Both the position numbers and the translations under genes were made by a program. DNA of 63,957 bases, the filler included, from Welwitschia mirabilis (Eukaryota), in NCBI GenBank assembly GCA_051453625.1. It is 5 parts of one record of this genome, joined end to end, with 100 filler letters (N's around TTAATTAATTAA, not from the genome) between each part and the next. Parts side by side here need not be neighbours in the genome. Positions count along the whole stretch, not along the records: positions 25,096 to 44,186 come from JBOZIK010000001.1; 4 more parts are not named here. One strand, written 5' to 3'. Shown here in pieces: positions 22,051-57,748 of the stretch (the first letter of the stretch is position 1; the number at the start of each line of letters is the position of its first letter). The notes beneath the pieces were generated by a model that made no database searches, was not told where the DNA came from, and saw only the letters and a program-made list of their open reading frames with translations.

Positions 22051-23076
22051 TGTTAGGATCACCAAATACCCTAGAGGGGGGGTGAATAGGGTTCTAAAAA
22101 TCCATTTACAAAACAAATTAAACTTGACAATTGAATACAAGAAACAATACAATAGAAGCACTCTACCGATTTATAGTGGTTCAGCTCTCCAAGCCTACTC
22201 CACTCACAAGAGGCAGCAAAAAGCTTTCAGCCTCTTGGTTGCTTTAAGCAACAGTGCAACACCACCACCCCCCTTTAGCAAAAGGCTCCAATTACAACAG
22301 ATGCTCTTCCCTGAGCAATGATCACAATTGAAAAGAATGATCTGATGATTTGTAAGCCTCCTAGCTTTGATACATCAGTAAGACATACAAGTGGAGAGAA
22401 TAATTTACATCAGTTTGGAGCAGAATGATTCTCCTTATCACAACAAAGTCAAGTTCTCCTTTCTAGTACAACAATTCCGTATTTTCAAAATCTATGAAGG
22501 AAATATTTATAGATGTTATACTGAGGAGACTCTTCTAGGAACCCTTACATAGGTTACAGGGCCAAGCCAGACCTTTGATTAGTCGTTTGTGCTTTGATAC
22601 GAGTGCCCAAGTTCGTTTTCGCTTATTTCCGCACGCCAACGGATAGTCCGTTAGATGTCCCAAGTTAAAAAGTCGGACGTCCCAATTTTAATCAGGATTT
22701 TAGAGGTATTCTGAAACAGGTTCAGACGGCCCGAGAAAGGAGGTTGGACGTCCCAATATATATGTACTGATTACAAGGTCGGATGTCCCGAGGTTGAGAG
22801 CCTGAAGTCCCAGTATATTTTACCAGGTACAAGGTCGGACATCCCAGTATATTTTACCAGTTACAGGGTCAGACGTCCCAAGGCTGATAATCGGACGTCC
22901 CAGTATATTTTACCGGTTACAAGGTCGGACGTCCCGAGGCTGATGGTCAGGGGTCTCGGTATATTTTTCAAATTTTTCTGAGTTTTCTTGACTGATTTTG
23001 CTCTTCAAGATTTGAGCTGTGACTTTGACCTGGGAATAATTTTGTCGTCTTCATCATTGAAATAGACTTGTTCTCA
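22051..23076 (-). mobile_element. Related SIRE-type LTR inserted inside the LTR that starts at 21537
   Basis: Begins TGTTAGGATCACCAAATACCCTAGAGGGGGGGTGAATAGGG, carries a GGACGTCC array at 22650-22950 and ends TCATCATTGAAATAGACTTGTTCTCA like the 36070 end. Confidence 0.75.
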
Positions 23077-25096: not shown

Positions 25097-27183
25097 CCAC
25101 ATATAGAACTCAAATGAGTTCACCACATAAAACTGCATATAGAACTTAATAAAGTTCACCACATAAAAGAACCCAGTATGAGTTCACCAAGTAAAAGAAA
25201 ATGATGGTTTTTTAGTGGTTTTTATAACAGAATCATCCCTAACAATGTGGACTTACTATTACCATGGAACTAACCTAACAACTTACATATAAAGATTAAT
25301 GTCAAGAAAAGTGTCCCATACCACTTTTCATGTCATTATCTTAACATGTAAATTGTATTACACTTGGAACAAGAATGAAACCTCCAAAGCTATGGGTCCC
25401 TTATTCAATTTCAAGCAATCCAAAATACAAACTTAATAACACAAGCACAAAAGAGCAATATTTTGCTTACTAGTAGACATATATCATATCTTTTAACAAC
25501 AAATGACCATCGACAGAAATGTCTTATGTAATAAGAGTTGGAAACTAATTGACAAGAAATCACGACATCATATCATCTTTACATGACCAGTGCTGCAGAT
25601 GGCAAAACAACGCTGAACTATTGTCAAGGAGACATTGATTTTATTTTCATTTATTAGATGATGGGGGCCTGCTGAAAAGATAGTTGACAGAACAAACACC
25701 ACCTAGAATCTCTTCCACATGGAAATGACAAATGGACAAGAAGATCCCTACATTCTCCATCCCCTCAAAAAACTTCTCATGAGCTTGACTTGCTACATAG
25801 TTTTCGTTGATGCAGTTTTGTTCCACGCAGATTGATTCAAGCCTAATGATGATGCAGTCCATCTGGGTAATCCAATGATGATCCATAACTTCATCATCAT
25901 AAAAAGCCACATCATGATTCTGGATTAGCAAAATGAAAATCCCAAAAGATTTTCAGACGTTTTGCGGATTTGTAGTCCTCTCATAAGAACCATTTTCTTA
26001 AACTCGTAGAAATTGACTTTGCCATTGCCATTCTCATCGGCGTTGTGGATCACCTTCTCACTAGTAGCGTCAAACTACCCCTCTGCAAATCCAAAGGCAA
26101 CAAGCACCTTTCCAAGCTCCGCTGTAGAAGTAAATCCAATTTGCACTTCTATGTGTTCAAACCCTTAATAATCATGAAGAATAGCACTAGATCTAAACCT
26201 GCATTCTTATTTCTGGAGAATCCCATTCAACTAATTCCAAGAAATATTCATGCAAATCATAGACATTCCAAATAAAAAACTATGATTCTGCAAACTCCAA
26301 AGGCATTTTGGACCTCCAACACTAAAATAGCAATAGAAATTTCTAACAAGAGAAAATTTCATGCAAATCCAACGTGAACCTTTAGAGAATTGTTAAAAGT
26401 CCTTGATTCTTGCATTGGTAATAGCATGACATCCCTTGGTCTTCATCTTTTTGAGATTCCGACAATACATACCGATGTTGCAGAGTCTGTCATCACTAAT
26501 CCTCAAAACATGTCGATTGCAGCAAAGCATGAAACACATCACATGATCAAATCTTTGACAACTGAATCCTTCCACTTCATACTCGCACTTGCAGACGCAC
26601 AAACCATTTTTGCGATCCAACAATGTGAGGCTGCTAAAATGTGTGAAAGGCACTCATCCAGAAGAGACGTTGAGTAATCACACAACAATGAAAACGAAAT
26701 GTCCTTTGACAACATCAGAACCACCGTGCAGTGCGAAATGCATGAAGTCGTTGCAGTTGTGGTAGTAGAACCATGTGAGTTCATTATTGAAGAAGCAACC
26801 TGTTGTGCTTCATCACCGAGAAGAGGCATCTAATCAGCAGGTAAGCCCTCGGCCCCTCCACATTACTCTTGTGCTTGCCCTCTAAATTTTCACACATGTA
26901 ATTTCGCAGTAGAAGCACAATCGCCACTGTCACCCATAAAACAGAGAACACATCAAGGATTGCAATTCCTTTGTTGCTTCTTTTGCATTTCTGTGGGGAT
27001 CCAAATCTAAAAGCACTTCTGCAAAAGGATGACAATATAGCTAATGCTCGTATTGGCTCTGATACCAATTGTAAGATCAAAAGATCCTTGCAGCACAACA
27101 AGAAGTTGTGGAAGCACCCATAGGGAGCGTGTAGGATTTCTGTGAAAGAACAACTCATTTTTTAATTATCATTTAGGGTTTTA
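25097..27183 (-). mobile_element. Putative non-autonomous LTR element carrying gene fragments
   Basis: Perfect tRNA-Met PBS (rc TGGTATCAGAGC) at 27056-27067 next to a TG LTR edge at 27070. Possible other LTR ends CCCTAACA at 25244. No gag/pol motifs inside; both ends cut by gaps. Confidence 0.55.
25980..26130 (-). pseudogene. Calmodulin-like (CML) C-terminal EF-hand fragment
   Basis: Reads STAELGKVLVAFGFAEG*FDATSEKVIHNADENGNGKVNFYEFKKMVL: canonical 12-residue EF-hand loop DENGNGKVNFYE preceded by the EL..VL..LG helix; one internal stop. Confidence 0.75.
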
Positions 27184-29350: not shown

Positions 29351-32300
29351 TTATGCTAAGACGGGATCAACACATAGGCCTAGATTTTTTCTAAACAACA
29401 CAAATTTCTCTTCACTTAAACTTTTAGTCATGATGTCAGCAATCTGGCTATCAGTTGAAATATATTCCAGTGTGACGATGTTCTTCTGAACATGCTCATA
29501 AATGAAATGATGTCGAATGTCAATACGCTTAGTTCGTGAGTGTTGAACTGGATTTTTTGTGATGTTTATTACACTAGCGTTATCACTATAAATTTTGATA
29601 TTACCTATGTTGATACCAAAGTCTACCATCATTTCTTTCATCCATAGGAGTTATGTGCAGCATGCTCTAGCAACAATGTATTCCACTTCTGTTGTGGATA
29701 GAGATGTAGTGGTTTATTTTCTACTTAGCCAAGAAACTAAACAATTTCCCATATAGAAGCAGACACCAGTAGTGCTTTTCCTGTCATCAACACATCCTGC
29801 CCAATCAACATCATTATACCCTATAAGGTCTAACATTATGTCATGAGCATACCAAAGGCCAAAGTCTTGAGCGGACATGACACACCTTAAAATTCTTTTA
29901 ACTTGGATCAAATAAGACTCTCCAGGATCTGCTTGATATCTTGCACACAATCCTACACTATGGGCAATGTTGGGTATACTAATAGTGACATATAGAAGAC
30001 TACCAATTAGACCTCGATAGAGTTTTTGGTCTACTTTCTTTCCCAGTTCATCCTTAGTAACTTTAAAATTGGTTGACATTGGGTTTTTAGCATCATTTAA
30101 GTCAGACATGTTGTATTTGATCAATACATCGTGAATATACCATCTTTGCCCTATTTTATTTGAAGACCTAAAAAGAAGTTTAACTCACCCACTAAACTCA
30201 TTTCGAATTCATCTTGCATAAGGTCAACAAATTCTAAGGCGAGAGAGTTCTTAGTCGACCTAAACACTATAGCGTCAACATATATCTGAGCAATAAGAAT
30301 GTTTTCCCCATTGTGTTTGATAAAGAGGGTTGGATCTACGTTTCCTTTTGTAAAACCATTCGTTAAAATTAAAGAATTCAATATATCACACAACCTCCAG
30401 GTGCTTAGCTTTATTCAATTTATAAACATGATTAGGAAATTTTGAATCAACAGAACTTGGAGGTTGTGCAATAAAAACCTGCTCATTTATAAAACCATTC
30501 AGAAAAGCGCTCTTTACATCCATTTGAAATAATTTTATTTTGTGAAAGCAAGCACAAACAAGTAACATCCGAATGGCCTCTAACCTGGCAACTGGAGCAA
30601 ATATTCTCACCATAGTCGATTACTTCTTACTGGTAATAACCTTGGGCTACCAATTTTGTACTTTGATTGACAAACAAATATTCCATCTTTGCCCTGATTT
30701 ATTTGATGACCTAAAAAGAAGTTTAACTCACCCACTAGTCTCAATTCGAATTCATCTTGCATAAGGTCAGCAAATTCTAAGGCGAGAGAGTTTTTAGTCG
30801 ACCCAAACACCATAGCATCAACATATATCTGAGCAATAAGAATGTTTTCCCCATTGTGTTTGATAAAGAGAGTTGGATCTACATTTCCTTTTGTAAAACC
30901 ATTCGTTAAAATTAAAGAATTCAATGTATCAAACAACGCTCCAAGTGCTTGTTTCAAACCATAAAAAACTTTATTCAATTTATAAAAATGATTAGGAAAT
31001 TTTGAATCAACAAAACTTGGAGGTTGTGTGATATAAATCTCCTCATTTATAAAACCATTCAGAAAAGCGCTCTTTACATCCATTTGAAATAGTTTTATTT
31101 TGTGAAAGCAAGCAAAAGCAAGTAACATACGAATGGCCTCTAACCTGATAACTAGCGCAAATGTCTTACCATAGTCGATTATTTCTTATCGGCAATAACC
31201 TTGGACTACCAATTTTGTACTTTGATTGACAAACAAATATTCCATCTTTGCCCTATTTTATTTGAAAACCTAAAAAGAAGTTTAACTCACCCACTAGACT
31301 CATTTCGAATTCATTTTGCATAAGGTCAGCAAATTCTAAGGCAAGAGAGTTCTTAGTTAACCCAAACACTATATCGTCAACATATATCTGAGCAATAAGA
31401 ATGTTTTCCCCATTGTGTTTGATAAAGAGGGTTGGATCTACATTTCCTTTTGTAAAACCATTCATTAAAATTAAAGAATTCAATATATTGAACACCACTC
31501 TAGGTGCTTGTTTCAAACCATATAAAGCTTTATTCAATTTGCAAACATGATTAGGAAATTTTGAATCAACAAATCTTGGAGGTTGTGCAATATAAACCTC
31601 CTCATTTATAAAACCATTCAGGAAAGCGCTCTTGACACCCATTTGAAATAATTTTATTTTGGGAAAGCAAGCAAAAGCAAGTAACATACAAATGGCCTCT
31701 AACCTGGCAACTGGAGCAAATGTCTCACCATAGTCGATTCCTTCTTATTGGCAATAACCTTGGGCTACTTGCCTTGTTTTGCATGATATTATGGTTTTCA
31801 TCTCTTTTGTTCTTTAAAAACCACTTCGTTCCTATGACATGTTTTCCATTGGATTGAGGGACTAAGTCCCAAACTTTGTTACACTCAAATTGATTGAGCT
31901 ACTTTTGCATGGCGAACATCCAAGATTCATCGTTTTCTGCTTCCTGAAAATTTTTTGGCTCTATATCAAATAAAGAACAAAGAAAACTATGGTTGATATG
32001 CTTACCACTTCTGGTAGTTGTTTCCATTGAAGGATCGCTTATAATGTTGTTTTTAAGATGATCCCTTTGGGTTCTCAAAGTCAGGGAAGAGCATTTCTAA
32101 AGATCTTTGTCTTCATTGACCTCTCTTGATGTAGTGGTAGTCACGTTAACACTAGCTTGAGAGGAAGATGGAATACATATACTGTCATCATTCTTTTCTA
32201 TGCCTGCATTGCCTAAGTTAAATTCATCAATTCGTACATGAACTATTACTTCCACCTTATAACAACTTTTATTATACACTCTATAAGCTTTACTAGATGT

Positions 32301-35031
32301 AGAATAACCAAGAAAAATACCATCATCGGATTAAGACTTAAGTTTCCCTACATGACCCTTGTCTTTGAGAATAGAACATTTACTTCCAAAAACTTTAAAA
32401 TAATTTACATTTGGTTTCTTACTAAATCAAAGCTTGTATGCCGTCTTTTTCATACTTGATCTTCAGAGCACTCTATTACTTACATAGCAAGCCGTATTCA
32501 CTGCTTCAGCCCAAAAGTGTTGAGGAAGTGCATATTCGTTTAACGTAGTTCTCGCCATCTCAATCAGTACTCTGTTTTTGTGTTTAGCAACTGCAATTTG
32601 TTGCAGAGTTCTTGGAGCAAAGAATTGATGTTGAATTCCATTTGAGTCACAAAACTTCTCAAATTTCTCATTTTGAAATTCCCCTCCATAATCTGATCGA
32701 ATACGCTTTATGGTGTAATCCTTTTCATTTTGTATTCTCCTGCACACCTTAACAAATAGATCAAATGTCTCATCCTTGCAAAACAGAAATGAGACCCAAC
32801 AAAAATTCAATAAGTCATCTACCATAACTAAAAATATTTCTTACCTCCCAAACTTCCTAATTGGGTTGGCCCAACCAAGTCCATATGAATAAGATCAAGA
32901 AGTCGGTTGGAAGTTATACTTGTCTTTAATTTAAAGCTAGACTTTGTAAGCTTACCTTTCATGCAAGACTCACAAACCTTTGCTTGCTGCACATTTAGTT
33001 TTGAGATTCCAATAACTATTTCATTTGAGGAGATTGTCTTGAGATCCTTCAGATTCATGTGTCCAAGACTCCTGTGCCAAATGTTCACTTCATCTTCCTA
33101 CACTATGAAACAACCTTCTCCATTCTTGTCCTAACTGCCAACAACATATATACGCTTGGACCTATTGCTAATTAACACAACATTGTTAGTAGAAGCACTT
33201 TTAATTACACATTTATCTTTATAGAAGGAAACTACATTACCTCTATCACAAATTTGTGAGACACTAAAAAGATTGTGCTTCAAGACCATTTACCCAATAC
33301 ACATCATGAATTATAGGATGATGTTCAATTGCAACAATAAATCCCTTACCAACAATGTGTCCTTTGCTATTATCACCAAAGGTCACTTCTCCTCTATCAT
33401 AATCTTGGAAGGTAGCTAATAAACTTTTGTTACCTATCATGTGTTGTGAACATCCACCATCCAAATACCATTTTGTTGTCTCTTGGACTTTGAATGCAGC
33501 ATAGACAAAAAGAGACTTTGTAGATGCTTTCCATACCCATTGCCAATTACCTTTTCGAGTCTTAGGCTTTATTGACATAGATTGAGTTTTCCTTTGAAAG
33601 CTAAAGTTATAGTTATATCCAAAATACTAAGATTTTTTGTAAGGGCATACAAATTGAATATGACCGTATTCTTGACAAAAATAGCATTTTAGACTATTGC
33701 TTCCAAATGAACGGATACTTAACACTTGTGCCAAAGAAATTTGGAGATAATAACATACCAGAAGAAGTTCCGATTCCAGATTTATTATTTGGCCTCCTCC
33801 CTACTCCCAAGAGGCAGTTCAGGTTCTCCTCCTCCTATGCGAGCCATTCACTCGTTTTGTTGGCTTGATCTAGTTCTTTATTTAGAGCTCTTCTCTTCTG
33901 AGTAGCATTTTTGAGTTTGTCTTCTAATTCACTAACCTGTTTCTTTAGATGCAAATTTTTCTTTCCAAGTTCAAGAGTAACATAATACAACTTCTCATAG
34001 GCAAGTGTCATGTTTCGATCCTCACTTTCATAATCGTTTATCTCATCTTTAAAATCAAATGATTCACTTACCTCTTCAATTACTGAGATTAGCTGCAAAT
34101 TAATGTATCCTTCATCTTCGCTTGATCGAGAGCCTGTCTCATCATCATACCAAGTAGCTTTCAAGGCTTTCTTACCTTTGTTTTTGCTTGGCTTTTCTTT
34201 CCTTTTGTAAGCACATGCAGAAGTAATATGACCATACCCCTTACATTCATAACATTGAATAGAGCAAGAAGAGTTCTTACTTTTGTCCATACCTCGTTTG
34301 AATGATTGCCTCAAAGATCTTCGTCCTTTCTTCCTGAGAAATTTTTTGAAGTTCTTTGCTAGAAGAGCAAGGTCATCATCTTCCAAATCCTCACTAGTTT
34401 GATTGCCTTCTTCATCTTCAGAGCAAGCTTTCAAAGCAATATTTCTTTTTTTTGGATGATCTTCTTTATTTTGCAAGGAAGCTTTGTATGCAATGAGAGA
34501 TCCTTTGAGTTCTTCAACTTTGATTCTATTAATATCCTTGCTCTCCTCAATGGATGTGATTTTAGGTCTAAACTTCTTCATAAGGCTTCTAAGAATTTTT
34601 TTTGAGTACTCTGTTTTGAGGCATAACTTTTCCTAACCCTCGCATGTTGCTCACTATATCATTTATTTTGGAGGTGTAGTCTGCTACTATGTCTAAGTCT
34701 TTCATTTTGATGTTTTCGAACTAAGTTGCAAGTATCTACAACTTTGCATTCTTCACCACATTAGTTCCTTTATGAGCGACCCTTAAGGTCTCCCATTCAT
34801 TTGAGAAGCCTTTTTCTTATCTTGATCCCATTCGCTTCTGGGTTTTGAAACGGTTTTACCATTGACTACTTTTGTCGGAATAGAATATCTGAATTCGACC
34901 ATTTCTCAGATTTCACAATTTAAGGATTGCAGGAAGATTGCCATTTTGGTTTTCCAGTCGGCATAGTCCGAACTTGAGAACAAAGGCGGTCTGAAAATAG
35001 ATTATCCTTCCGTGTAGCTTGACAATGCCAT
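29351..35031 (-). pseudogene. SIRE-type copia gag-pol, disrupted
   Basis: gag (RPKITSIEES, CYECKGYGH), protease WYLDGGCSQHM, WHRSLGH, integrase RSDYGGEF, RT (MDVKSAFLNG, QIYVDD), RNase H (NPVQHSRTK, QIADIMTK). Confidence 0.93.
30140..31768 (-). repeat. Triple tandem duplication of the RT core (559-bp unit)
   Basis: Junction GG(G/A)CTAC|CAATTTTGTACTTTGATTG at 30651 and 31210; three diverged copies of KIKLFQM(D/G)VKSAFLNG...QIYVD...GELNFFLG. Confidence 0.92.
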
Positions 35032-35097: not shown

Positions 35098-36070
35098 TGT
35101 TATGATTAAAAAACACCCTAGACGGTTTCTAAACTTTTACACTAGAAAATGCATAGAAGCTATAGACAAACAGGTACACCTAAAACTGGAAAAATGAAAG
35201 CATAAGCGACGTGCACTAGATCTTTTATCGTGGTTTGCTCTCCAACCTACTACACTCTCACTCCACTCTCAGGGGCAGCACAAAGCCTTCAGCAACTTGG
35301 TTCTCTTAAATCAAAACTTATTCTTCTAATACAAACAACCCTCTATTCCAGGGCTCAGGAATGACAATCCTTGCTCCTTTAGAGCAACACAAAGAAGAGA
35401 AGAATAGTCTGATGTCTATTGAGCTTGAGCCCAATGAGCACATATCATCAGCATTGAGTATAGCTTGAAAGATTGAGATTTGTAGCGTTGTTTTCTTCAT
35501 TGATCAATACATTTATATGTTTAGGACTCAACGAGGTAGAGAGAACCCTAGACAAGGTCTTTTTTGAGTTGTGTGCATTTAGGGATGTTCTTCTAGTTGT
35601 TTTTGACTTTGATTCAGCACCTAACGTTCAGCTGAGCACGCATTTCCGCAATAATAGTCATCTTCTTGGACGTTCCACTGAGAAAAACTAGACGTCACAA
35701 TTTTTAAAATTGCTTTTATAGAAAACTGAGACAGGGTCCAAACGTCCTAGTTTTGAGGGTCGGACGTCCTAGTAGATTTGACTGAGAATAGGTCCAGACG
35801 TCCCAACTTGGAGAGCGGACGTCCCAATATCTTTCATCCGCGAACAGGTTTGGACATCCCAGTGTAGAAGGTCGGATGTGCCAGTACTTCTTGACAGTTT
35901 AAAGGGTCGGACGTCCTAGTTTTGAAGGTCTGACGTCCTAGTACTTCTAAGTTGCTTCAGATCTAGATTTTCACTGCCTTTGTGACTCTAATAATCTCCT
36001 AGGATTTGTAAATGCAATTTGGCTACTTGTTCCAATGCATTGGTCATCATTGAAATATAACTTACCAACA
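35098..36070 (-). repeat. 5' LTR of the SIRE-type element
   Basis: Bounded by the PBS and the TSD; contains a GGACGTCC array at 35670-35940. Confidence 0.9.
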
Positions 36071-38200: not shown

Positions 38201-41200
38201 TGCGTCATTTTTGTATGTACTCTCTAATATTTGTACTCAAAACTCCATTTCACACACACATGTACATATCTATCAAGTTTGAGACCCATTTTATGATATT
38301 TGCACTCCATGTGTGATTTTTGAGTACTTCACATTTCCATTTCTACAATGCCATTACTGGCAAATGTATAAGTGGGGGCTGATCTACTAAAATCATAATC
38401 ATTTTGATGTCAAGTTTATATTCTAGGAGAGTTTATAGGATTTTTACAAGTGTTTAGAGAGTAACTTACCCTCCAAAGGAGTCAAAAGAAAATCTAATTT
38501 CAAAAAGAAAATCTAATTTCACAAAGTGATTAAAAATGTCATCGTCTACTTCATTGTCTGGACAACGTAGGTGGATAACAATCACTATTCATACATTTTC
38601 GAGAGATGACATCACATCTAGTTGAATTTGGCCTTGGAATTGCATGGTAAAGTTAGTGGAACTCAATCTATCCATCTGTTTGATTATTAACCCTTGTCAG
38701 TTTGACATCGCAACATAATTATCTGCTTGCCTTATCAAAGACTAACAGATGCTAAGTGGGGGGCTATATTGCATGGCCAAATTGCCCCTATTTAACAATG
38801 TTTTGAAACATGTTTTTAGGTTGTATTAATAGCTTTCCAAAGAATTTACAATAATCATGCATAACCACCGTGAGGATTACAAAAAGCATGAATTTTCAAC
38901 ATAACTGACCACTTTTGGATGTTGTCAAGGATTTCTCTATTCTTGACCCTTCTAAGAGATCATAGTCAAGAGGCATGCCAATTACAACATCACAATGACC
39001 CCACGAGCATCAACATAACTTACAGAGATATTTAAAAGCCTATTTGAACAGTCCTTCAAAACCAATTTAACACCAAGGGAAGCTGATTAGAGCTAAGGTT
39101 ATTGCAAAGAGTGTGGTCCACCTACTCATTTGGATGACACTTGCAAGATGACACACAGTGTAAGTTCACAAAAACCTCATTGTTTCTTGAGGATCGTCCA
39201 CTACGGTGGTTCAGATAAAGCTAGGCAGACGATAATAAGCAGATACACTAGGAAGGCACATAGAGGGCAGTTAGTGGTAGTTGAATGATCATCCCCTATG
39301 GTCATCTGGATGATACCAATGAGGAGACTGCCCTAACTGATGTAGAACTAATCCTATTTGTTATGAAATTGTTAATCTAATTGCATCTTTTCGCTTCCTA
39401 CCCCTTGGTGTCCTCAGTTACCAATTTAAAACTATAAATACCCTCCTTTGTCATCCATTTTAGGCTATCCATTGTATATTAAGTGTTCTTGTGATGATTT
39501 GGACACCAATTGGCCAAGGGATCCATCTAACTTAGGAGGGAAGCTTTCCTTGGTGTTGGGATAAGACTCCTTCACTGAGGGGTGACTATTTGTAAGTGGA
39601 TTTAATACTTTGTCATTAATAAAAGATCAAGTTGTTTATTCAAATTTCTCTCTTCTCTTCTTTAAATTCTACGTTGGAATCAAGTTAATTGCAATTAAAG
39701 TTAATTTTGGTTTTGATATAGGATATAAAGGCCAACTTGGGTGATAATAAGTTCATAAACTTGGTTAATCAATCGCATTTAGGATTGCATTAAATTCTTG
39801 CATTGTCATTTCATCTTATTTTCATATCCATCATTGCATTGTTATCTACTTTCTACTCTAAAATTGAATAAAAGATCATTCCCTTTTTCAATGAGTCAAT
39901 TTTCCAATTAAGCATTGAATATCCCACCAGTTTACGACATTGGTTTGTCTCCCTATACTAGTATTTGTTCATGTGAATTAGATATTTAAATTGCAAGTTA
40001 TCATTGAAGAAGATTAATTGATTTGAAAAGCACACGACACACTTCACAACAAGTAGCAAGAGCGAGTCTTCCCACGTCTTGTTGGGTTGTAGCAGTTATC
40101 ACTACTGCATAACTCATTAACATGTCACCTCATTCAACACTATACAGATAGATTCTAAAAATTCTATCGAAAGGAAAGGAAATCTCCTATCAGCACTTGA
40201 TACTCTTTGGCTATGAAGCTTATGTTAATGTATAGAAATCTCACAGGTCCAAGTTGGATTATAAGGCATGCAAATGTATCTTTGTTGGTTATGGCAATAA
40301 TAATTATGCACATACACTTTGGCATGCTGGTTGTAAAGAAGTGGTTACATCCCAAGGATGTGATCTTCAAAGAAGATTCTCTATTTTATTTGAAGCAACT
40401 TGAGAATTAGAATGGGAAAACATCTACTTTTGGCTTCTCTTCGAAAGAGTATACCAAAGTATTTGCTCATGACAAAAATGATGAAAATGAGAAAAAAGAA
40501 GATATTTCTAGCAATTAAGACATTCCTCGTGGTGAACAAGAAGACAGATCAAGAATAGGAAAAGAAAGATGCTAAAGATTTAGAAGAATAGGCTCCTCTG
40601 AAGGGTTTTAAATCCCTTAAAACGCAGACAGAAATATGTGATGAGCATTAAGAGGAGAGTGCATCATGCATACAAATTGAAACTAAGCTAATACATCAAC
40701 CATGGAGGCCCCATCCCCTAGCCATTCTGAGGACAACAACTAGGCATGTTCTTCATTAGCATTGCAATAAGAATTTAAGCATGAGGCCGTAGAAGTGCTT
40801 CCCATAATATCCTCACTTAGATCCATATTTCATGGATCTCTTTTCATCATCCTTCTATGTTTGGATCTTTGACTTANNNNNNNNNNNNNNNNNNNNNTTA
40901 CATAGTTGATTGTCTAATATATTTGTCTTTTCTATCTTTGATTTTCATACCAACATTAAATTGTTGGCATTACCCAAAGAAAGTTCCAACATTTTAATGA
41001 CAGCCTCTTGATGTGTGCACTATGCAATTTCATGTCACACATCATTTGCAATTCACATATTTCGAAAGGTCAATTATGTTCTCCTTCCAATTCTTAAAGG
41101 AGTTTTCCAAACATGGTATTAAGGACTCTTCCCTCAGTCCTCGTTCACTCTACCTCTTCCTCTTGTAAAGTGGAACACAAACCATGTAATATGAGTGTGC

Positions 41201-41887
41201 CCTTTCCTTGCTTTGGGCTACACATTAAACCAGCTTCTTCGCCTTGAAGCTACATTCATGCCTCTCTCATGGGCATCTTAAAACATATAACTCCTTTACA
41301 TCACATTTTTGCTCAAACAAATACTAAAGGGGATAGAAAGGTACCTTCTTGATATTCTAGGTAACTTTTATCCTAAATGGGGTTATAAATGTGGAATTTA
41401 AAATACCTTACCAAAAAAATTTAATAGTTTACCCCCTTAATAGTAATGAGAATTTTGGATAAACAATGTTAACAATAAAAATTTTAAGAATCAAACCACT
41501 TTTAATGGCATAGTGTTCCTCCACTCCATGACACTTCACTGCACTTCCATATCCCTCCTCTTCTTCTACTTTAGTCATACCAGAAGAATTTCATGTGCAT
41601 TTCATCGATCTGGGTAGTAATTTCTGTGTTTCTTTAATACTCTATAACCATGGTAACGAGATTCTCAATAAATTGAGTATTTTCATCTGCCCATTTTTCC
41701 ATAGGCTCCATGAGATCAGCCACCACAATTGGTTGCACAGGCAACGTGAACGAATTAGCTTCCATTTGGCTAAAGACAATAACAAGCATCTACGTGAGCG
41801 ATGCTTTGGCTGTCCTTGGATGTGGTGGCCGTTTCTCAGGCTCCTCGCTTGATCCCTTGTCCATTTTCACAAGAAAACTCTGAGATC

Positions 41888-42144
41888 AAACAACAACGAG
41901 GGCATTCTCAAGCTAAGAATGAAAACCCTCGCCTTTGGGATAGTGACGCATGATCTCTGCAAAGCGCTAGAACTCCAACGAACCGTTGATATTCTTGGTT
42001 TTCATGATAGATTTGAGCTCCACTCGCATAGAGTTTTCACCGAGAGCTCTGATGACCATATCGAGATTCGTTGGTGTCATGTGGCCATCCTTGTCCGAGT
42101 TGAAAAGACTAAAGGCCTCTCGCATTTTCTCCTCTTCATTTGGT
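41888..42144 (-). pseudogene. CML13/CML14-like calmodulin-like fragment
   Basis: EEEKMREAFSLFNSDKDGHMTPTNLDMVIRALGENSMRVELKSIMKTKNINGSLEF*RFAEIMRHYPKGEGFHS*LENALVV parallels MKEAF.[64 protein letters not shown]. Confidence 0.85.
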
Positions 42145-42278
42145 GATTGCTCCAGATTTTGATTTGGAATTGAACCTATGGCAAGTTTATTACTTAGAGT
42201 CTTGCATTCTTGAACAAGCTTTTTTTTTAATTTAATCTTAAATTGTTGCAAAATGCCGGTATTTTGTTTAGGGCTCAT

Positions 42279-42540
42279 TTCCCGACAAAGTTGCTCTTCG
42301 CCGATGGCTCTTATGCCACCTGCATTGTGCACCGCTTCATGACAAAGCTGCAACACAATGACACGACCACCGCGCTGGTCTTTTGCACAACCCATGCCGC
42401 CTCTGACGATGCCTTCTTTACAGCTATGGAGGAACTTGGCCTGCACATGATCACTGGCAAAGTGTTAATCGGCTGCAACGCACCGCCCGCACTAATGGAC
42501 ACAACGGGTACTGCCATTGGTACTTCAAAAAAGCATTTGA
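42279..42540 (+). pseudogene. guaD: Internal fragment of a bacterial-type guanine deaminase (amidohydrolase superfamily)
   Basis: FPTKLLFADGSYA...FMTKLQHNDTTTALVFCTTHAASDDAFFTAMEELGLHMITGKVLIGCNAPPALMDT is collinear with the bacterial GuaD pattern FPTE..F.D..YA...F...LLRNGTTTALVF.T.H..SVDA.F.AA....RMI.GKV.MDRNAP..L.DT. Confidence 0.88.
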
Positions 42541-44286
42541 AGATGACAGAGATAAGCAGAGTCTTCTCTCTTGGAAATTGATGTGTGGTCCATCCCAAAT
42601 TGGATTGTGGAAGATGAGCTCTGAGGATGAGCTCTGGCCGCTTTCACTCAAAAGACCCAAGGAAAAAATCTGTTCAAGAGAGAAATGAACACCCAAGTGG
42701 GTGAATCAGAGACTGCACTTGTAGCAGTGGTCCATTCATGCTCCATTCATATTGAATCTTTGTAGCCAAGAGGATCCTGACTGTAAATCCTTTCTGCCAT
42801 TGTCTTCCTATTTCGTATTTGCAAGGACTCCAATGCAGTCCTGTAGACAATGGATGAGATCTTTCTTTATGATAGCTCATTTGGAATGGATCTTTACTGC
42901 GTCTGGCAGCTAAGCCAACAACTTAAAAGACTCTGATACCATATGAAGGGTTTCAAATCCCTTAAAATGCAGACAGAAATACATGAAGAGCATTAAGAGG
43001 AGAATGCATCATGCATAAAAATTGAAACTAAGCTAATACATCAAACATGGAGGCCCTGGCCCCTGGCCATGCCTAGGACAATGGTTGGGCATGTTCTTCA
43101 TTAGCATTGCAATAAGAACTTATACACGAGGCTGTAGAAGTGCTTCCCATAATATCCTCACTCAGATCCATATTTGATGGATCTCTTTTCATCATCCTTC
43201 TATGATTGGATCTTTGACTTAGCTTCCCGCTAAAGTGGGAAGTTACGTAGTTGACTGTCCATTATATTTGTCTTTTCTATCTTTGATTTTCATACCAATA
43301 TTAAATTGTTGGCATTAACCTACAAATATTCTCCTCCTTTAAATTATGTTTAACTAACTAATCAAGGAAAACTAGAAACTATTTTAAAAGTAATTCATGC
43401 AGTAATTGGAAGCAGTGGGAGGTTGCAATGCATGTTTAGTTGAAATCACCCATGGCTAATCACACATTGGAATTGGTGTAGGTATCAAACAGTAAGAAAG
43501 CACAACACAACTGATGATGCTTTTAGCTAAAGGAAGATCTACATGGTTTTACTAAGTATGAGACAAGACTTATGGTAAAGGGTTTTGAATAGAAACCTGG
43601 TATTAGTAATTTCTCTAATTGTTAAGTAATATTCTATTAGAATCGCTTTGTCTTTGACTACCTATTTAGATCTAGAACTAGAACAACTAGAAGTTAAAAC
43701 TACATGTTTGGATGTGGATCTGGAAGGAGAGATCTATATGATCCAACAAGAAGGCTTTGTGGATCCCAAGCATCCTAATTTCGTATGTAGACTAAGAAAA
43801 AGTCTGTATGGTCTTAAACAACCCCTCAACAATGGTACAAGAAGTTTGATTCATTTATAAAAGTACAAATAGAATTGCAAAAGCAAAATAAACCACTATA
43901 TTAACTTCACTGACCAAATGGGAGATAAGTTCATTATGTTATTATTATATGTTCATGATATGGTTATAACAAGAACTAATAAGGGTGAAATTAAATGCCT
44001 AAAGCATGACATGGGTAGGACTTGGAGCTAGCCAAGCAAATTCCTAAGATGAAGATAATTAAGGACAATAGCCATAAACTATTGTGGCTCAGTCAGGTAG
44101 ATTCCATCTTCAAGGTTTGGGAGTGTTTTTTCTTTTTTTTTTCCTTTTTATAATTTTTTTGGGGTAGATGGAGTGTGCTCATAGTANNNNNNNNNNNNNN
44201 NNNNNNNNNNNNNNNNNNNNNNNNNNNNNNTTAATTAATTAANNNNNNNNNNNNNNNNNNNNNNNNNNNNNNNNNNNNNNNNNNNN

Positions 44287-47581: not shown

Positions 47582-50459
47582 AGGTCTTTGATCTTCTAAT
47601 CACAAGCCCAACGCCCAATAAAGAGCCGTTGAAAAATTAAAACCCGCGGTTAACGTCTATAAACGGCTAATTTCTGCGTCAACAAATATAAGCCCGCATG
47701 TCCCATCGAGGAAATTCGGACGTCCCGGTTTTTAATCTCCTTGCCCAGAAAAACCGAATACAGGGTTGGACATCCTGATTTCACAGAGCGGACGTCCCGA
47801 TATGGCAAGCCGTATACAGGGTCAGACGTCCCAATTTCTCAAGGCGGACGTCCTGGTATAGCAAACCCATATACAAGGTCAGACGTCCCGGATTCATAGT
47901 GCGGACGTCCCAATATAGAGAATCAAATATAGTTCCGGACGTCCTAATTTATCAAGGCAGATGTCCTAGTATATAATACTGCATACATGGTCGGGCGTGC
48001 CAATTATATAGGGCAGACATTCCGATCTAGAGAAAGCTTGTTTTCTAACTGAGAATCTTCATCATTGAAAACATATGATGCACTAGTTACAAGAGAAATT
48101 CAGATTCGTTATTTGAATGTCTGGCCAGAAGAACGTTGCAGCAGAAATTCAGATTTGTTTGGCCGCCCAACGCGTTTTTCCTATATAGAAATGGGTCTTT
48201 GTTGGTCTGCAATACGGTTCTTCCTTCTAGGAAGACTACAACAATTATTTCTCTTTGAAATGTTTAAAGAGAGTGCACTTGATCTGATCTAGTGCAACTA
48301 TGCTTATATTTGTATTATCCTACTTCAAAGAAAAACAACTCTGAACTAATGTACTGTGCATTGTTAAGGCACTCTTCCACTAGACTCTCTCTCTCTCTCA
48401 GAACCCTCTGATTCGATTTGCTCACTGGGTTGAGCATCGTTGTGTTGTCCTCCCTCTTATCTAGTGGTGCGGAAGAAGGAGGTGACTAAATGGATCTATT
48501 AAGCTAATAGAACTAGGAGACTAATAGTAGTTGTTGCCCCTTAAGAGTGGAGTAGGCCGTTTGCCGAACCACTACAAAAATCTAGTGTCCTCTTTGTTTT
48601 CAACATTTTTATTTTCTTTATAGAGTTGTGATCATAAATTGTTTAAATTTTTTTAAAAATACTCTATTCAACCCCCCCTCTAGAGTGCATTTCGATCCTT
48701 ACAATTGGTATCAGAGCCTAGTTGCACTAAATTAGTTCTTTTCTTTCTTGTTGTTTTAGATCTACAGGATGGCCTCTTCAAGCTTTACTGAAGGACAATC
48801 AATCTCAAAACCTCCACTCTTCTTTGGAAGTAACTATGCTCACTAGAAGTCGAAGATAATATTTCTTACATCTCTAGATGTGGACATTTGGGAAATGATC
48901 ATAAAGAAATATCAGACCCCCACGATGATAGATGCAAATGGAGCAATTTCTAACGACAGGAAGTAAGCCTAACTAAATGCGCAAGCCATGAACACATAAT
49001 ATGTGTTCTTGCACCAGATGAAATATGATCGTTTTGTCCAGTGCACTACAGCACAAGAAATGTGGGAGCCTCTGAAGATAGGACATGAAGGGACAAACAC
49101 AGTGGAGAACACTAAACTACAATTACTGGCCACCCAGCTCGAGAATATCAAGATGAAAGAATTTGAAACTATTGTCAAATACACTACTAAGATCACCAAC
49201 ATCACAAACCACATGTGGGAACTGGGTGAAAAGCTTCCAAAGAACAAAAGCGTATGCAAGATTATGAGAAGTCTAACAAAAAGATTCAGACCCAAAGTGA
49301 TAGCCATTCAAGAAAGCAAAGACATTGACACCATCAAAATAGAAAAGTTGAAAGGATCGCTCATAGCCTATGAAGCCACCTTTTTTCCAAAAGAAGAAGC
49401 ACCCAAGAAAAGAAGCATAGCTCTCAGAGTCGGCAAAGAAATCGAAAAAGACTCATCATCTGAAGAAGCTAAAGATGAGGACCTAGCCTTACCAGGAATT
49501 TTAAAATATTTCTGAGAAGGAAAAAGGAAGGAAGACCTCTCAAAAGATCATCAAAATGTGAAAATGAAAAGGATAAGCAAATCTCTAACTTTATTCATGT
49601 CTTGAATGTAAAGGTTTTGGTCATGTAGCCTCAGAACGTTCCAACAAAAGAAAGGAACAAAGTTCAAAAGGCAAGGAGAAAAGGGCTCTAAAAACAACAT
49701 GGGACGACTCTGATGAAGAACTAGACAACTTAAATGAAGACGATGAGGTATTGAACTTTGGACTGTTATCATTCATAGATGAGTCAAACCTTGGGCTTAT
49801 AGCAGTAGAAGAGGATCAATAAAATGATCAGGCATGTTCAGCAAGTGATTACAAAGAATGCTTTGACTTAGACTATAATGATCTTATTGATGCCTACGAG
49901 AAACTATACAATGTTAGTATTGGACTAGGAAAGAAAAATGTTCTCAAAGAAAGCGCAAAGGATCACTGAACGATTGCTGCAGGGAAAAGAGAACCTTAAC
50001 AAGCTCTTAGGAAGTGGGAGATCCCCATTTGACAAAGCAGGACTTGGAAGCACCCCAGGCACCTCTACCTCCTTTCATAATTTTTAGACTAGAATAAGAT
50101 ATCAATCTTTTGGAAAGAAATGCTTTTATTGTAATAAAGTAGGTCATGTTCAATCCTTTTGTCCATATAAGAAACCTCTTTTCTTTGGTTATACTTGCAA
50201 TTTTCAGTTTGAAAACAGATCTCACTTGGTTAATCATAAACCTAGCAAAATGAAATGGATTAGGAAAAATTCAACAACCACCCTCTTCGCCCACGCTGCC
50301 TTTAAAGTTTAAGATAAAACTAAATAGTATCTTGATAGTGGATGTTCTCATCATATGACTGGAAATAAAAGTCTCTTGAGTTCCTTTCAAGAATACAATG
50401 GAGGTGAAGTAAGCTTCTGAGACAATGGAAAGGGACACATTGTTGGAAAAGGATCAATA
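47582..50459 (+). mobile_element. SIRE-type copia 5' LTR, PBS and gag-protease, cut by a gap
   Basis: LTR ends GATCCTTACA at 48703; PBS TGGTATCAGAGC at 48706; gag ATG 48769 (MASSSFTEGQSISKPPLF); RFRPKVIAIQES; YLDSGCSHHMTG. Confidence 0.9.
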
Positions 50460-52012
50460 NNNNNNNNNNNNNNNNNNNNNNNNNNNNNNNNNNNNNNNNN
50501 NNNNNNNNNNNNNNNNNNNNNNNNNNNNNNNNNNNNNNNNNNNNNNNNNNNNNNNNNNNTGGAATCCATCACCGAATATGCAACCAAGGTCATGGACATT
50601 GTAAACACAATGTGGGGTCTTAGAGAAAAGGTTCCAGAGCAAAGAGCTGCGAGGAAAATCCTGAGGAGCTTGCCTAAACGCTTCAGACCAAAGATTACTG
50701 CAATTAAAGAGAGCAAAAATCCGGACACCATGAGTCTGGAGGAGCTCAAAGAATTGTTGATCGCTTATGAAGCTACCATTCTTGAAGATGAAGGACCCAA
50801 GACAAAGAATATTGCCTTGAAATGCTCCAATCAGGGCAAGGAAGGATCTAGTAATGAAGAGAATGATGAGGACTAGCCTTATTGGCGAGAAACTTTAGAA
50901 GATTCTTAAGAAAACAAAAAGACTACAGAAGAACAAGATTTAGTGCAAATAAGGAACAGATGGAGAAGAAAAATTCCTTCAGGAACTTTAGCAGAAACAA
51001 GAAACCATTACAATGCTTTGGGTGCAAGGGATTTGGACACACAGCGGCTGAATGTGCCAACACAAGAAAAGCTACAAACAAAGGGAAGACGGCTCTCACA
51101 GCATCTCAAAACGAAGAAGAGGACTGCAGGTTGCTAGTCATCACTGAAGAATATTCATTAATTTCAACTACCAAGGATGAACAAGCAATCTCTAATGAGA
51201 ACAAGGTAGTCACTGAACATTCTGAAAATATCGAAGAAGCTTGTGAATAATAGTATTTCCACTGTGAAGTCCTAACTTGTAAAAATAAAGATTTAAGATC
51301 TGAATTACTTTCTTTACAAACTAAACTTGACTTAGACAACAAAGAGCTAGATAAGGCTATTGAAAATCTTGCAAGTGCAAATAAGACAGCCTCAATATTA
51401 ACAAGGGATTTAGAGGCTACAAGGAAACTCAATTTGGCTACCTCATGGCACTCCAACAAGGTAAATACGAGTCACAAGAGGTATGCACTAAAGTCTGACA
51501 ATTCAAAGTTCTTTAATATTCGCTATTTCTATTGTGGAGGTCTAGGACATCTTAGATTTTCTCATCCCATCAAAAAGGGAAATTTTTTCCGTTATAGAAG
51601 TGATAGGTTTCTGTGGAGATCAAAAGTAATGAACAATCAGCCTCTCATCAAACAAAGATGGGTTAAGAAGGAATCTCTCAAAAGGCTATTCATTCAAACC
51701 GCTATAAAAGCAAAGGAGCATCCGAGATGGTTCTTGGACAACAGTCGTTCAAGACATATGATAGGTGACAAAAGAAGATTTCATACACTCGTTAACTATG
51801 ATTGAGGACAAGTATCCTTTGGTGACAACCGAAAAGTAGCCACCAAGGGAAAAGGAATGGTATGTGAATATAATCTTCCCAAATTGACGATGTTTTGTAT
51901 GCAGATGGTCTTAAGCACAATCTTTTAAGTATTGCCCAAATGTGTGATAAAGGGAGTACAGTTATTTTTGATAAAAATAAGGGTGTCGTAAAGAATATTT
52001 CTAGCAATAAGG

Positions 52013-52152
52013 TGTTAGTATCGTACGATCACCCTGGGGTTGGGGTGGGGGGGGAGGGGGGGGGGGGGGGGAAGTTGAATAGGGTTATAGTAAATTTCTT
52101 ACTAATTTTTGCAAAACTATACTTCTAAAAAAAAATTAAACAAGGAACAGTA
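52013..52152 (-). mobile_element. End of a nested SIRE-type LTR with an expanded G tract
   Basis: TGTTAGTATC...CCCTGGGG...G(n)AAGTTGAATAGGG interrupts pol just before a gap. Confidence 0.65.
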
Positions 52153-55100
52153 NNNNNNNNNNNNNNNNNNNNNNNNNNNNNNNNNNNNNNNNNNNNNNNN
52201 NNNNNNNNNNNNNNNNNNNNNNNNNNNNNNNNNNNNNNNNNNNNNNNNNNNNAGTGCAAAGTCTACGAGGTAAGAGATATTTTATGGTGGCTGTTGATGA
52301 TTTTACTAGATATACCTCGGTTGAATTTTCGCATTCTAAATCTGATGGATTTGATAAGTTTTGTCATCTTTGCAGAAGAAATCAAAATGAAAAGAGCCTC
52401 ATGATAAAGAAAATCAGGTCCGATCATGGAGGTGAGTTTGAAAACGAAAGCTTTATTAACTTTTGTGATAACTATGGGAAATTTCATTAGGTTTCAGCTC
52501 CTCGAACACCATAGCAAAATGGGGTGGCAGAAAGGAAGAATAGAGTTTAATAGAAATGGCAAGGACAATGCTAGGAGAACACAATCTCCCAAGATGGTTT
52601 TGGGCTGAGGCAGTAAATACTACTTGCTCCATATCCAATAGGATCTTCCTAAGGACCGTTACTCAAAAGTACGTCTTATGAACTTTGGAATGGTAAGAAG
52701 CCAATGGTTAAGTATTTCAAGGTCTTTGGTAGTAAAAGTATTATTTTGAATGACAAGAGTCTTGGTAAATTCCAGCCCAAAGGTATGCATGGTATTTTTA
52801 TTGGATATTCTTCAAGAAGTAAAGCCTATAGAGTTTTTAACTATGATTCAAATAAGGTTGAAGAATCAATTCATGTTAAAATTTTAAAGATTGACAATGG
52901 CAGCAAGATGAACAGAGAAGATGAGGATAAATCCATACCCACTCTTAACAATGATACTCAAAGTGATCCACAAGATGCTACAAACAAAGTTGATGAGGAG
53001 GAAACTGATGCTCTTTCCGAAACTACTGCTCCTCAAAAATGCTCAACTCTTCCCCTCAGAACTAGAAGGGATCATCCAACTGATCAAATCATTGGGAATC
53101 CAGATTCACGGATAAGCACCAAACGAGGTATTAACAATATTTGTGCTCATTTCTATTTCGTATCTCATATTGAACCTAGAAATATAGCTGAAGCAGAGCA
53201 GCATGAGGAATGGTTGAAAGCTATGCAAAAGGAACTATAGTTTAAAAGAAATGGAGTGTAGTAAACACATTATTGGCACGAAACGGGTTTATAAGAAAAA
53301 ATTAGATGACTTAGGCACAATAGTTCAGAACAAAGCTAGATTGGTAGCACAAGGGTACAGTCAAAAAGACGGCATAGACTACACGGAAACCTATGCACCA
53401 GTAGCTAGGCTTGAATCTATTAGATTACTGTTAGCTAACACTTGTGCTATGAACATTAAACTGTTTCAAATGGATGTAAAGAACGCTTTTTTAAATGGCT
53501 ATATTGAGGAAGAAGTTTACGTTAAGCAACCATCGGGGTTCATTGACTCCAACAATGCAGAACATGTTTTTAAGCTAAAGAAGGCCTTATATGGACTCGA
53601 GCAAGCTCCAAGAGCCTGGTACGAAAGATTATCGAATTTTTTGTTAGAAAATGGTTTTAAAAGTGGCAATATTGATCCCACCTTGTTATTAAAAGAACTA
53701 ACAAAGACATTCTTATCTTACAAATCTACGTGGATGACATAGTCTTTGAGCAACCAATGAAAAACTAATTATAGAATTCTCTAAGATTATGCAAAGTCAA
53801 TTTGTAATAAGCATGCTTGGAGAGCTCAATTTTTACTTAGGATTACAAATCAAACCACTCAAGAATGACATTAGTCAATCAGAGTACGTGAAGGAGCTCT
53901 TAAAGAGATACAAGCTTGATCAAGCAAAAGAGGTCTACACTCTCATGTCTACATCAACAAAAATCAGCAAGGATGAATCAAGTAAATCTGTAAACCAAAC
54001 AATGTATAAAGGTATGATTGATTGTTTGTTATATTTATCATCTAGTAGACCTGATATTGCATTTAGTGTTGGTATATGTGCTCGATATCAATCTGATCCT
54101 AAGGAACCTCATCTCTCTTTTGTTAAAAGGATTTTTAGATATCCTAAACATACAAGTAATTTTGGTATTTGGTTTCACCGTAATACCTCACTCAATCTAG
54201 CTAGGTATAGTGATGCAGATTGGGCTGAATGCACTGATGATAGAGAGAATACAAGTGGAGCATGTTACTTTCTTGGGAATCGTCTAGTTGCTTGGAGGTC
54301 CAAGAAACAAAGTTCGATATCCCCCTCCACTGCTGAAGCTAAGTACATATTAGCTGGAGCCTACTACATTCAATTGTTGTGGCTGATGCACACTTTACAC
54401 GACTATGGGGTTGAGATGACAAGTAGTCAACTCTTGTGTAATAATATCAGCGCCATTAGCATTGCTAAGAACCCTGTACAGCATTCAAGAACTAAGCATA
54501 TCGACATCAGGTATCATTTCATTAGAGAACACGTTCAAAGAGGAGCAATCAAGCTTGAGCATGTCTCTACAGACAAACAACTTATCGATCTATTTACCAA
54601 GCCTCTTTCAGGAGCAAGATTCGAACTTTTAAGAGTCAAGTTGGACATAGGAACATGCCCAACCGAGGTATGATTCCTTGTGTTTTTGAACAATACCAAC
54701 ATCTATACATATTAATCAAAAGTTTGAGTATATTAAGAGCATAGTCTACGTCTTTCTAGTGTCTTCTCACGTCTTGTAGTCATCTTCCGATCAAACCCTG
54801 TCGCTTTTGTCTTTTTTTGCTCTTTTCTAGACCAATTCGGAGTATCGTGGTTCCGGACGTCCGCACTCTAAAGAGGCTGTTCATCTGCACGTCTATTAGT
54901 GGCTCTCTAGGCCGAATGGAGGGTGGACATCCGCCCTTCAAAGGCTCGGATGTCCACGCACCTGTGTGGACGTAAACTAGCTCCTTAAATCCGCCTAAAT
55001 CGCGAATTTGGTCATTCGCCTCTATATAAACGGACATCCCCTCTTTTCTTTTACCCTATCCTGTCATATTCAGTGCCCTAGTCTCAAGAAGTGTCTTTTT

Positions 55101-56186: not shown

Positions 56187-57748
56187 AAAATGCCTTTTAA
56201 ACTGTCTCCCTTTTCCTCTAACTCTTATCTCTACTGTTACCCTTTTTGTTCTCCATTGTACTTGTGTGTTTTGTAGTCTTCATCTGTCAATCCATTTGCT
56301 CTAGGTCTTATGTATACCGAACTATGATGAATATGTAAACCATCTATTTGCTTAATAGTTAAGGCAATTTCCTTTTGTTTCCTTTAAAATTATTGTTGTT
56401 CACATACTGTTTATAGTTTTTTTTGGTATCGTTTGTTTCCCTTCCAAAATCAGTGATACCAAAAGGGGGTTATGATTGCAAATAATGATAGCTTAACCAT
56501 TTTAGTTTTCTTCAAAGGGATATCAAACTCAAGGAGAGCAAGTCTACATAGCAAGGGGAGGTTATTTCTTAGAAGTACTTTCAGACATCGAATTTGTCAT
56601 CACTAAAAAGGGGAGATCGTGAGTAGAAGGTTTCAATGATGCCAACAGTCGCAAGGATAAGTTTAAAAGGTGGCAATCTTCAATCACAATCAGTTTATGA
56701 AAAAGGGAAAAGCCCTCTTTCAAGTACAAATGTCCCCACTCAAGACTGGATGGACGTCACCACTCACAAACATGATGGACGACCCCACTCAGACAGGGCA
56801 GACATCCCCTCTCCTATTGGAAAAAAGTGTGACTGTGAAATATTTTAGGCCTAGAAGTCCCCACTCCAAGCAGCCCTGGCGTCCCCCTCCTCAGTCTGCG
56901 CCTGTGTGACACGTGCAGACGTCCGCACCAATTCAAGGGTGGACGTCTCCACTTTCCCAGTAGTGCGGATGTCCGCACCATCCAAAGGGCGGACGTCCGC
57001 ACCCCTGCGAGCACAGACGTCCCCACATTTTTAAGGTAAACGTTCCCTCTCCTGAACCATTAGAAAACGGTCAGTTGCAAGCAAACGCGCGGCAATTTTC
57101 AACAACTATTTCTTCTTGTGCCTCCTTCAACCATGTTGTGAACCACATTTGTTTGAAATCTCAGATAATCACGTCTTGGAATCAAGATTCTGAGATTTTC
57201 TCCAACAACTATTTTGTCTCCTCTTTAGAAGGACTCAAAAGTTAGATGTTTTTTCATGAAGTGAACAGTAAACCTATCTTTGGTAATCTTTGTAATCTGT
57301 GAGCTAATCTCGGGTGATCATTCTGAATAGCACCCACATTGTTCCATCAGTGCTTGAGGCACATTCTCACTTCCTCATCTTGTTTTTGTGGTCGAGTCTG
57401 AGCCTTCGAAAGACTTCAAGTTGTTAAAGGTTGNNNNNNNNNNNNNNNNNNNNNNNNNNNNNNNNNNNNNNNNNNNNNNNNNNNNNNNNNNNNNNNNNNN
57501 NNNNNNNNNNNGGAACCATGGAAGATGTCACTACTGTCTCTCCTTGAAGAGTGAAGTACGCACATTGTCAAACCACTATAAATCTTGTGGGCTGATAATT
57601 TTTCTGATTTGCATATGTTTTTATAGATCTATTATCTTTTGCAAAGCTGATTAATATTTTTAAAGAATAGGCTTTTGATTCAACTTGTTTATTACTAGCC
57701 CTATTCGCCCCCCTCTAGGACTTTCATCCATCAGACTACTTCTTAACA

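Follow-up and report, generated by a model that had tools for sequence, protein, structure and literature searches.

The window analysed here is a stretch of 63,957 nucleotides, filler included, from the genome of Welwitschia mirabilis (GenBank assembly GCA_051453625.1). At 40599–43317, in the part that comes from JBOZIK010000001.1, its minus strand carries a 2719 bp element bounded by long terminal repeats (LTRs), the interior of which contains pieces of genes for a calmodulin-like protein (CML), a BIG ARF-GEF and a proteobacterial-type guanine deaminase (guaD). An original prediction, made from the sequence alone, had described a non-autonomous LTR element with mosaic cargo, and this description is supported. 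The LTRs are located at 42944–43317 (5′ LTR, ending in TA...CA) and 40599–40972 (3′ LTR, including 21 N), both on the minus strand; the predicted pair is present, but each repeat has 374 bp and not about 385 bp. They differ at 33 of 353 comparable bases (23 transitions; 90.7% likeness, Kimura two-parameter distance 0.10). An insertion age of about 4–23 million years would follow from substitution rates between 2.2e-9 and 1.3e-8 per site and year. The predicted primer binding site, TGGTATCAGAG, is found next to the 5′ LTR at 42931–42941 (minus strand), two bases inward of it; we take it to match tRNA-iMet.

Four of 24 listed runs (X1, X5, X18 and X21) were aligned to 40978–43620 at 80% likeness. 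X18 is an oligo-dT RNA run and X21 a raw DNA run of a capture library. X1 and X5 consist of contigs; X1 may be the sample from which the window came and is thus not independent, while X5 comes from a different study. Loose ends of the alignments at 43317 (from 38 X1 contigs, 24 X5 contigs and 148 X21 reads) run on into the 3′ interior of the element family, so that the start of the LTR is fixed and the termini read 5′-TA...CA-3′. According to the accessible text of PMC9804982, this is a known end type, reported mostly for copia elements. As predicted, gag and pol are missing: no Pfam family was found at E ≤ 0.1 in any of 18 stop-read-through frames of 40973–41541, 41538–41853 and 42510–42931, and the central part of the interior (41854–42509) consists of CML, BIG and guaD sequence. 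On the element strand, the primer site is followed by a segment at 42930–42510, antisense guaD, a 50-base spacer, BIG piece 1, CML piece 1, CML piece 2, BIG piece 2, a segment at 41639–41340, the 3′ region of the family and the 3′ LTR.

Both CML pieces are in the sense orientation (minus strand of the window). Piece 1 (41899–42134), the sense CML fragment of the original prediction, gives EF-hand matches and covers codons 7–85 of a 143-residue protein; it is 72% identical over 82 residues to the Welwitschia protein P0001, presumably a CML13/14-like protein. Piece 2 (41840–41894), recognised by translation and an RNA joint, consists of codons 1–8 preceded by 30 bases of 5′ leader. RNA reads exit the window sequence at 41901 and continue in CML sequence, and the residues read off two RNA loose ends equal those of P0001 at 20 of 20 positions. 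The BIG ARF-GEF pieces are likewise in the sense orientation (minus strand) and match P0152, also a Welwitschia protein; P0001 and P0152 were each the sole match of the respective search. BIG piece 1 (42132–42221) covers approximately residues 31–60; the tblastn match extends over residues 20–60 at 42254–42132 (59%, E 7e-8) and is clear from 42221. The whole of 42180–42271 was also considered as an intron, and this assignment was dropped, since 42221–42132 is BIG coding sequence. BIG piece 2 (41640–41813) covers residues 196–253, with 44 of 58 residues identical (E 1e-27) and one internal stop; it perhaps begins at residue 193 (41822). BIG piece 1 and CML piece 1 are in frame and overlap by one codon. 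Two of the segments that had been left unexplained in the prediction, the BIG ARF-GEF sequence and the second CML piece, are thereby named; 42510–42930 and 41340–41639 have no assignment.

A joint from 42067 to 41840 is present in 19 RNA reads (eight starts) and one DNA contig and shows that, in the mRNA of the CML parent, piece 2 lies upstream of piece 1; in the element the halves are swapped. Piece 2 ends at codon 8–9 and piece 1 starts at codon 7–10. Codons 1–85 are thus circularly permuted in the CML pieces, the cut lying within about nine bases. Of the RNA molecules, 5 of 10 and 6 of 11 have their start or end at 41894, and piece 2 starts at the apparent 5′ end of the transcript.

The RNA-seq coverage that the prediction had proposed to check comes from X18, whose reads hold parent-like CML, BIG and guaD transcripts. 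None of the 455 aligned reads is at least 99% alike to the window, giving no sign in X18 of transcription of this element copy, and 416 of the 455 are less than 90% alike; the RNA thus comes from parent genes and not from this copy. Total depth reaches 150 over CML, about 6–17 over both BIG pieces and about 3–6 over guaD. All four sense pieces of CML and BIG are coding or 5′-leader sequence of expressed genes.

Coverage by X21 reads averages 291 in the 3′ interior, 219 in three LTR bins and 2.2 in the centre; the LTR and 3′ interior are thus about 100–130 times deeper than the cargo centre, a ratio to be read as an order of magnitude only, because the library is a capture library and most reads are less than 90% alike and partly aligned. 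Contig depth drops stepwise inward from both element ends. Together, the depth ratio of about 130 and the stepwise drop point to an abundant family in which this cargo is rare. Varied cargo throughout a Pack-like family, as predicted, is not shown; most relatives are without this cargo, and their interiors may be ordinary gag-pol. An X1 contig corresponds to 42161–42692 with no differences, across the boundaries of BIG, guaD and 42510–42690. Two X5 contigs cross other junctions without gaps: one, matching 41623–41989 (BIG, CML 2, CML 1), is 81.7% alike; the other, matching 41855–42177 (CML 2, CML 1, BIG), is 81.4% alike and diverges beyond both ends. A third X5 contig matches 42254–42690 at 86.5%, beyond which it diverges. 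The mosaic is real and occurs in more than one copy, the other copies being known from contigs without LTRs in view. The occurrence of the same junctions in two X5 contigs at 81–82% likeness indicates that the mosaic was copied after its assembly.

The predicted antisense guaD fragment is confirmed as well. It is a 236 bp piece at 42272–42507 (plus strand of the window, antisense to the element) and matches E. coli GuaD (6ohb, E 4e-14) with 56 bits, against 17–18 bits for 2uz9 and yeast 6oh9, which are guanine deaminases (GDA) of animal/fungal type; its Atlas clusters are bacterial. DNA similarity to bacteria spans approximately 42278–42507. Bacterial sequences were sampled and not searched exhaustively, and among those searched no relative exceeds 55% amino-acid identity: the closest reach 54% in genome stretches (best 80 of 593), 53% in metagenome stretches (best 80 of 550), and 55% and 53% in proteobacterial genomes (401 + 401 genomes). 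The highest ungapped DNA identity is 63% (160 loci), and none of 190 bacterial or metagenome loci reaches at least 80% over any 70 bases; the fragment alone gave no match among 121 genome-contig stretches and no blastn match in plasmids. About ten host RNA reads (1217 read-bases) and three X5 contigs exceed 80% likeness to the piece. At 42406, within a conserved stretch, all seven RNA reads and all three X5 contigs encode valine, where the window encodes aspartate.

The guaD match is bounded by a T-rich AG (42270–42271) and by G|GT (42508–42509); both bounds occur in about 0.1% of random intervals, with criteria that were set after the sequence had been seen. RNA of the guaD parent covers only the guaD match and stops at its end although a DNA copy continues; 42510–42690 may be an intron of this parent. 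With no bacterial relative above 55% among those searched, and with the AG/GT bounds, the guaD piece probably stems from an exon of a gene resident in the host. In the simplest reading of the sequence data, this gene would be spliced and lowly expressed, and the piece would be a single exon together with its flanks; a resident plant gene is more likely than a foreign source. The window holds only a decayed piece of 78 residues, and the parent is known from reads and contig alignments. Several results weigh against a resident gene. No plant protein was found for the fragment among 77 word-search candidates, from a collection that includes a Welwitschia proteome; in a second protein search the best match is 48% identical, and of the 19 among its 150 listed proteins whose source was looked up, none is labelled plant. 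The reads are few and come from one library. A tree including the fragment (168 rows, 76 columns, five rows mis-extracted) gave no resolution: the fragment forms a long branch in no supported group, so that no donor can be named.

We favour, as the probable explanation of the locus, a non-autonomous LTR element that acquired BIG, CML and guaD pieces from host RNAs packaged with it, through repeated switching of templates, and was transposed again by a copia-type helper; the RNA route, the path within a single molecule, the helper and the spliced host guaD parent are what we infer. Reverse transcriptase, proceeding from element 3′ to 5′, would have copied a co-packaged BIG mRNA from residue 253 to about residue 193, switched into a CML mRNA at codon 8–9 and run to its 5′ end. 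From there it would have jumped to codon 85 and copied as far as the point of its first entry, where copying would have ended, the template there having been digested by RNase H. It would then have returned to BIG upstream of its exit point, copied residues 60 to 31 and, finally, gone onward to antisense, unspliced guaD sequence. Such a path would account for the exact permutation of CML and the order of the BIG pieces; the swapped order could otherwise arise by a tandem duplication and two deletions, both of which would need ends at the same codons. Switching forced at the 5′ end of an mRNA, and also inside a single molecule, would be visible in the exchanged CML halves and the re-entry into BIG; the element is unusually readable as an example of multi-gene capture, with detail that is countable across the family. 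RNA capture by template switching, as proposed in the prediction, is likely, and the X5 contigs support further copying once the cargo had been captured. The accessible text of PMC5131818 describes capture of this kind for maize Bs1, a four-gene mouse retrocopy and yeast, and that of PMC4717578 describes the same mechanism for a three-gene soybean element; a template-switch retroposition model is in line with the accessible text of PMC13317346. The wider proposition, that a seed plant has a spliced, expressed proteobacterial-type guanine deaminase gene, one exon of which was copied into the element next to a stepwise trace of reverse transcriptase moving round a single mRNA, appears evenly balanced.

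A number of observations run counter to capture from RNA by an LTR element. The guaD piece is antisense and seemingly has intron flanks, which cannot be obtained from a spliced mRNA. Known captured cargo in miniature retrotransposons with terminal repeats (TRIMs) is exon-only, and here a probable intron-flanked antisense piece is present in 2.72 kb. The pile-up of RNA ends at 41894 comprises 11 molecules from a single library and may reflect the edge of an alignment, and X18 total depth is only 0.1–0.3 over 42491–42757. The target-site duplication is poor (tcctc on the left against accta on the right, three of five bases agreeing). The polypurine-tract position before the 3′ LTR is atypical, being pyrimidine-rich with a GGG end; a GGG-ended pyrimidine-rich tract is also found in the family consensus derived from loose ends. 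No helper was found in the window, where the element has no other match; a copia-type helper or partner is suggested by the termini and the primer site only.

An antisense guaD piece would require unspliced antisense RNA or a DNA template, and this keeps alive the view that breaks in an ordinary element were repaired with DNA from several genomic sites, after which the patched element transposed. Filler DNA can be scrambled, and the X5 contig at 42254–42690 (86.5%) crosses the putative donor site into unexpressed sequence, which is in line with such repair, as are the apparent intron flanks. All four sense pieces, however, are exonic or leader sequence of two expressed genes, whereas random filler in a repeat-rich genome would rarely be exonic, and one piece starts at an apparent transcript 5′ end; DNA-templated filling is therefore considered unlikely. 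The guaD piece could also have been taken straight from a bacterium, from endophyte RNA or DNA, with no guanine deaminase gene in the host; the reads would then stem either from that bacterium or from element copies that are transcribed. Every close relative with a name is indeed bacterial, the protein searches described above yielded no plant protein, and only about ten reads lie on the piece. Yet the level of 80%, which none of the 190 loci attains, is attained by RNA reads and three X5 contigs that share one difference from the window; moreover, the RNA library is oligo-dT, the RNA ends with the guaD match, and AG and GT bound that match. A direct bacterial source is very unlikely.

The original prediction also considered later, unrelated insertions as the origin of the cargo. 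Such insertions, for instance retrocopies made by long interspersed nuclear elements (LINEs), would have entered a normal element at this site one by one. That most relatives are without the cargo and that a 9-A run adjoins BIG piece 1 would fit this. The contigs with the same junctions, however, differ by 18–19% from this copy, about twice the LTR divergence (9%); the pieces are internal fragments with an in-frame overlap, gag/pol was replaced and not interrupted, and no flanking repeats were seen (no direct repeats of at least ten bases flank any cargo piece among 20 of 35 repeat families listed). The prospect of separate insertions is faint. Finally, the assembly is gappy and there is N inside the left LTR, so an assembly or contamination artefact has to be weighed; the exact X1 contig at 42161–42692, the diverged X5 contigs spanning other junctions, and the excess of C-to-T and G-to-A changes in guaD relative to GC-rich relatives (33 against 7 in the comparison with L019), as expected after a stay in methylated DNA, leave it a negligible chance.

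The segment at 42510–42930 has no Pfam match; one frame in it has no PDB match below E 1, and one open frame has no Atlas match. A guess that it is a PPR piece found no support in the Pfam, PDB or Atlas searches. According to depths and loose ends, 42847–42935 is common to tens of relatives. Within the segment, 47 bases (42807–42853) match one X18 transcript, the loose ends being uniform at either side (17 and 16 reads); the match may reflect capture from a fourth gene or be due to chance. The spacer at 42222–42271 is AT-rich and has a 9-A run on the element strand; its part 42254–42271 is also present in an X5 contig. The segment at 41340–41639 has medium copy number and no Pfam match; X1 summed depth is 68–187 over 41334–41600. 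A phospholipase D C2-like PDB match at about 41430–41510 (E 0.076, three stops in 27 codons) was treated as chance, and a LINE piece, guessed at 41640–41530, was not supported by the profile and structure searches. The family 3′ interior (40973–41339, minus strand) is non-coding and of high copy number, as seen from its X21 depth; backward joints in X1, X5 and X21 show that relatives hold a tandem repeat of about 96–101 bases at 41179–41290, of which one unit is present here. A 17-base inverted repeat (82%; 42208–42224 and 42663–42679) brackets the antisense guaD block, and several such repeats occur by chance in the interior. Within the cargo (41640–42507), CpG observed/expected is 0.6–0.9 in guaD, CML piece 1 and BIG piece 2, against 0.1–0.3 in the LTR and flanks. 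An Rfam scan gave only three chance-level matches (E 0.44–0.53), and a tandem-repeat scan nothing of note.

The element is flanked on the left by an SH3-like domain of a decayed copia pol (40236–40400, plus strand; PF25597, E 1.1e-8) and on the right by a reverse transcriptase of a decayed copia in the same orientation (43630–43857, plus strand; PF07727, E 1.9e-10). These flanks are colinear, both on the plus strand, and the element thus sits inside a decayed copia. Further copia remains in the window are located at 48900–54700 (plus strand; gag, SH3 and reverse transcriptase) and at 29700–34600 and 58600–61800 (minus strand); none of these has sequence in common with the element at 40599–43317. 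At 30062–31721 a copia reverse-transcriptase stretch is present in three tandem copies of about 560 bases, 79–93% alike. Several copia-like elements carry arrays of a unit of about 56 bases built on the core GGACGTCC (22636–22991, 35723–35946, 47751–48030 and 56726–57029). Two related decayed elements, 11269–13317 and 18043–20582, are about 80% alike and 7.3 kb apart; they are probably of gypsy type, with an RT_RNaseH match at 20356. The 100-base gaps with the spacer TTAATTAATTAA (24996–25097, 44187–44286, 58496–58595 and 62817–62916) are a source of false repeats.

A guanine deaminase of a gymnosperm or gnetophyte has no report in the open literature searched, which left out most subscription papers and the supplements of genome papers. 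The accessible text of PMC12448838 contains nothing on plant guanine deaminase, and that of PMC12541418 attributes GDAs to Chlamydomonas and calls the enzyme absent in plants; a rice amidohydrolase is proposed as a plant GDA in the accessible text of PMC8360030. A land plant with a bacterial-type guanine deaminase is nevertheless known: Physcomitrella has one of alphaproteobacterial origin, listed for the moss only and with no Arabidopsis homologue in the accessible part of PMC3493653, and cited again in that of PMC9667741. In this respect the putative Welwitschia gene would be like the moss GDA. A proteobacterial-type guaD in a gymnosperm would, if true, imply that the gene was retained for long or was acquired in a separate horizontal transfer, and its expression would give a seed plant a second way to recycle purine nitrogen.

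According to the accessible text of PMC13477047, the capture of exons by copia and gypsy elements is widespread among gymnosperms and extends to Welwitschia; the work is a genome-wide count, and that text is without this element, permuted donors or guaD. The element has no report in the literature searched, which did not include most subscription papers. The predicted label of TRIM or large retrotransposon derivative (LARD) fits a 2.7 kb element with 374 bp LTRs poorly: 2719 bp is outside the TRIM range given in the accessible text of PMC4717578 (under 1 kb as a rule, 1.2–1.45 kb with cargo), inside the loose range allowed in that of the review PMC6696364 (up to 4 kb) and below the LARD length given there (over 4 kb). 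Gene-capturing TRIMs such as soybean GmaRetroS15 are similarly non-autonomous, carry 5′-leader and exon pieces of several genes and were re-copied after capture; these elements, in the accessible description, are 1.17–1.45 kb in size, exon-only and have 5-bp target-site duplications (PMC4717578). As in the animal and yeast LTR retrocopies (Tan et al. 2016; PMC5131818, accessible part), partial mRNAs replace the interior, with probable multiple switches and secondary retroposition. Those retrocopies have short shared sequence at junctions, where microhomology was judged here at the protein level only; unlike them, the present element is from a plant and has copia-type ends. The closest counterpart in kind is maize Bs1, described in the accessible parts of PMC5131818 and PMC13317346 as an LTR element holding pieces of three host genes. 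Pieces of at least two host genes between LTRs, which define the Bs1 type, are provided here by CML and BIG, with guaD probably the third. As in Bs1, the cargo is LTR-bounded, partial, multi-gene, low in copy number and has shared switch points. Unlike Bs1, the element has no continuous chimeric reading frame (stops lie inside the CML and BIG pieces) and gives no sign that this copy is transcribed (none of 455 RNA reads at 99% or more), and it has one circularly permuted donor and one antisense donor with likely intron flanks. The Welwitschia element is a new example of the known Bs1-type multi-gene capture.

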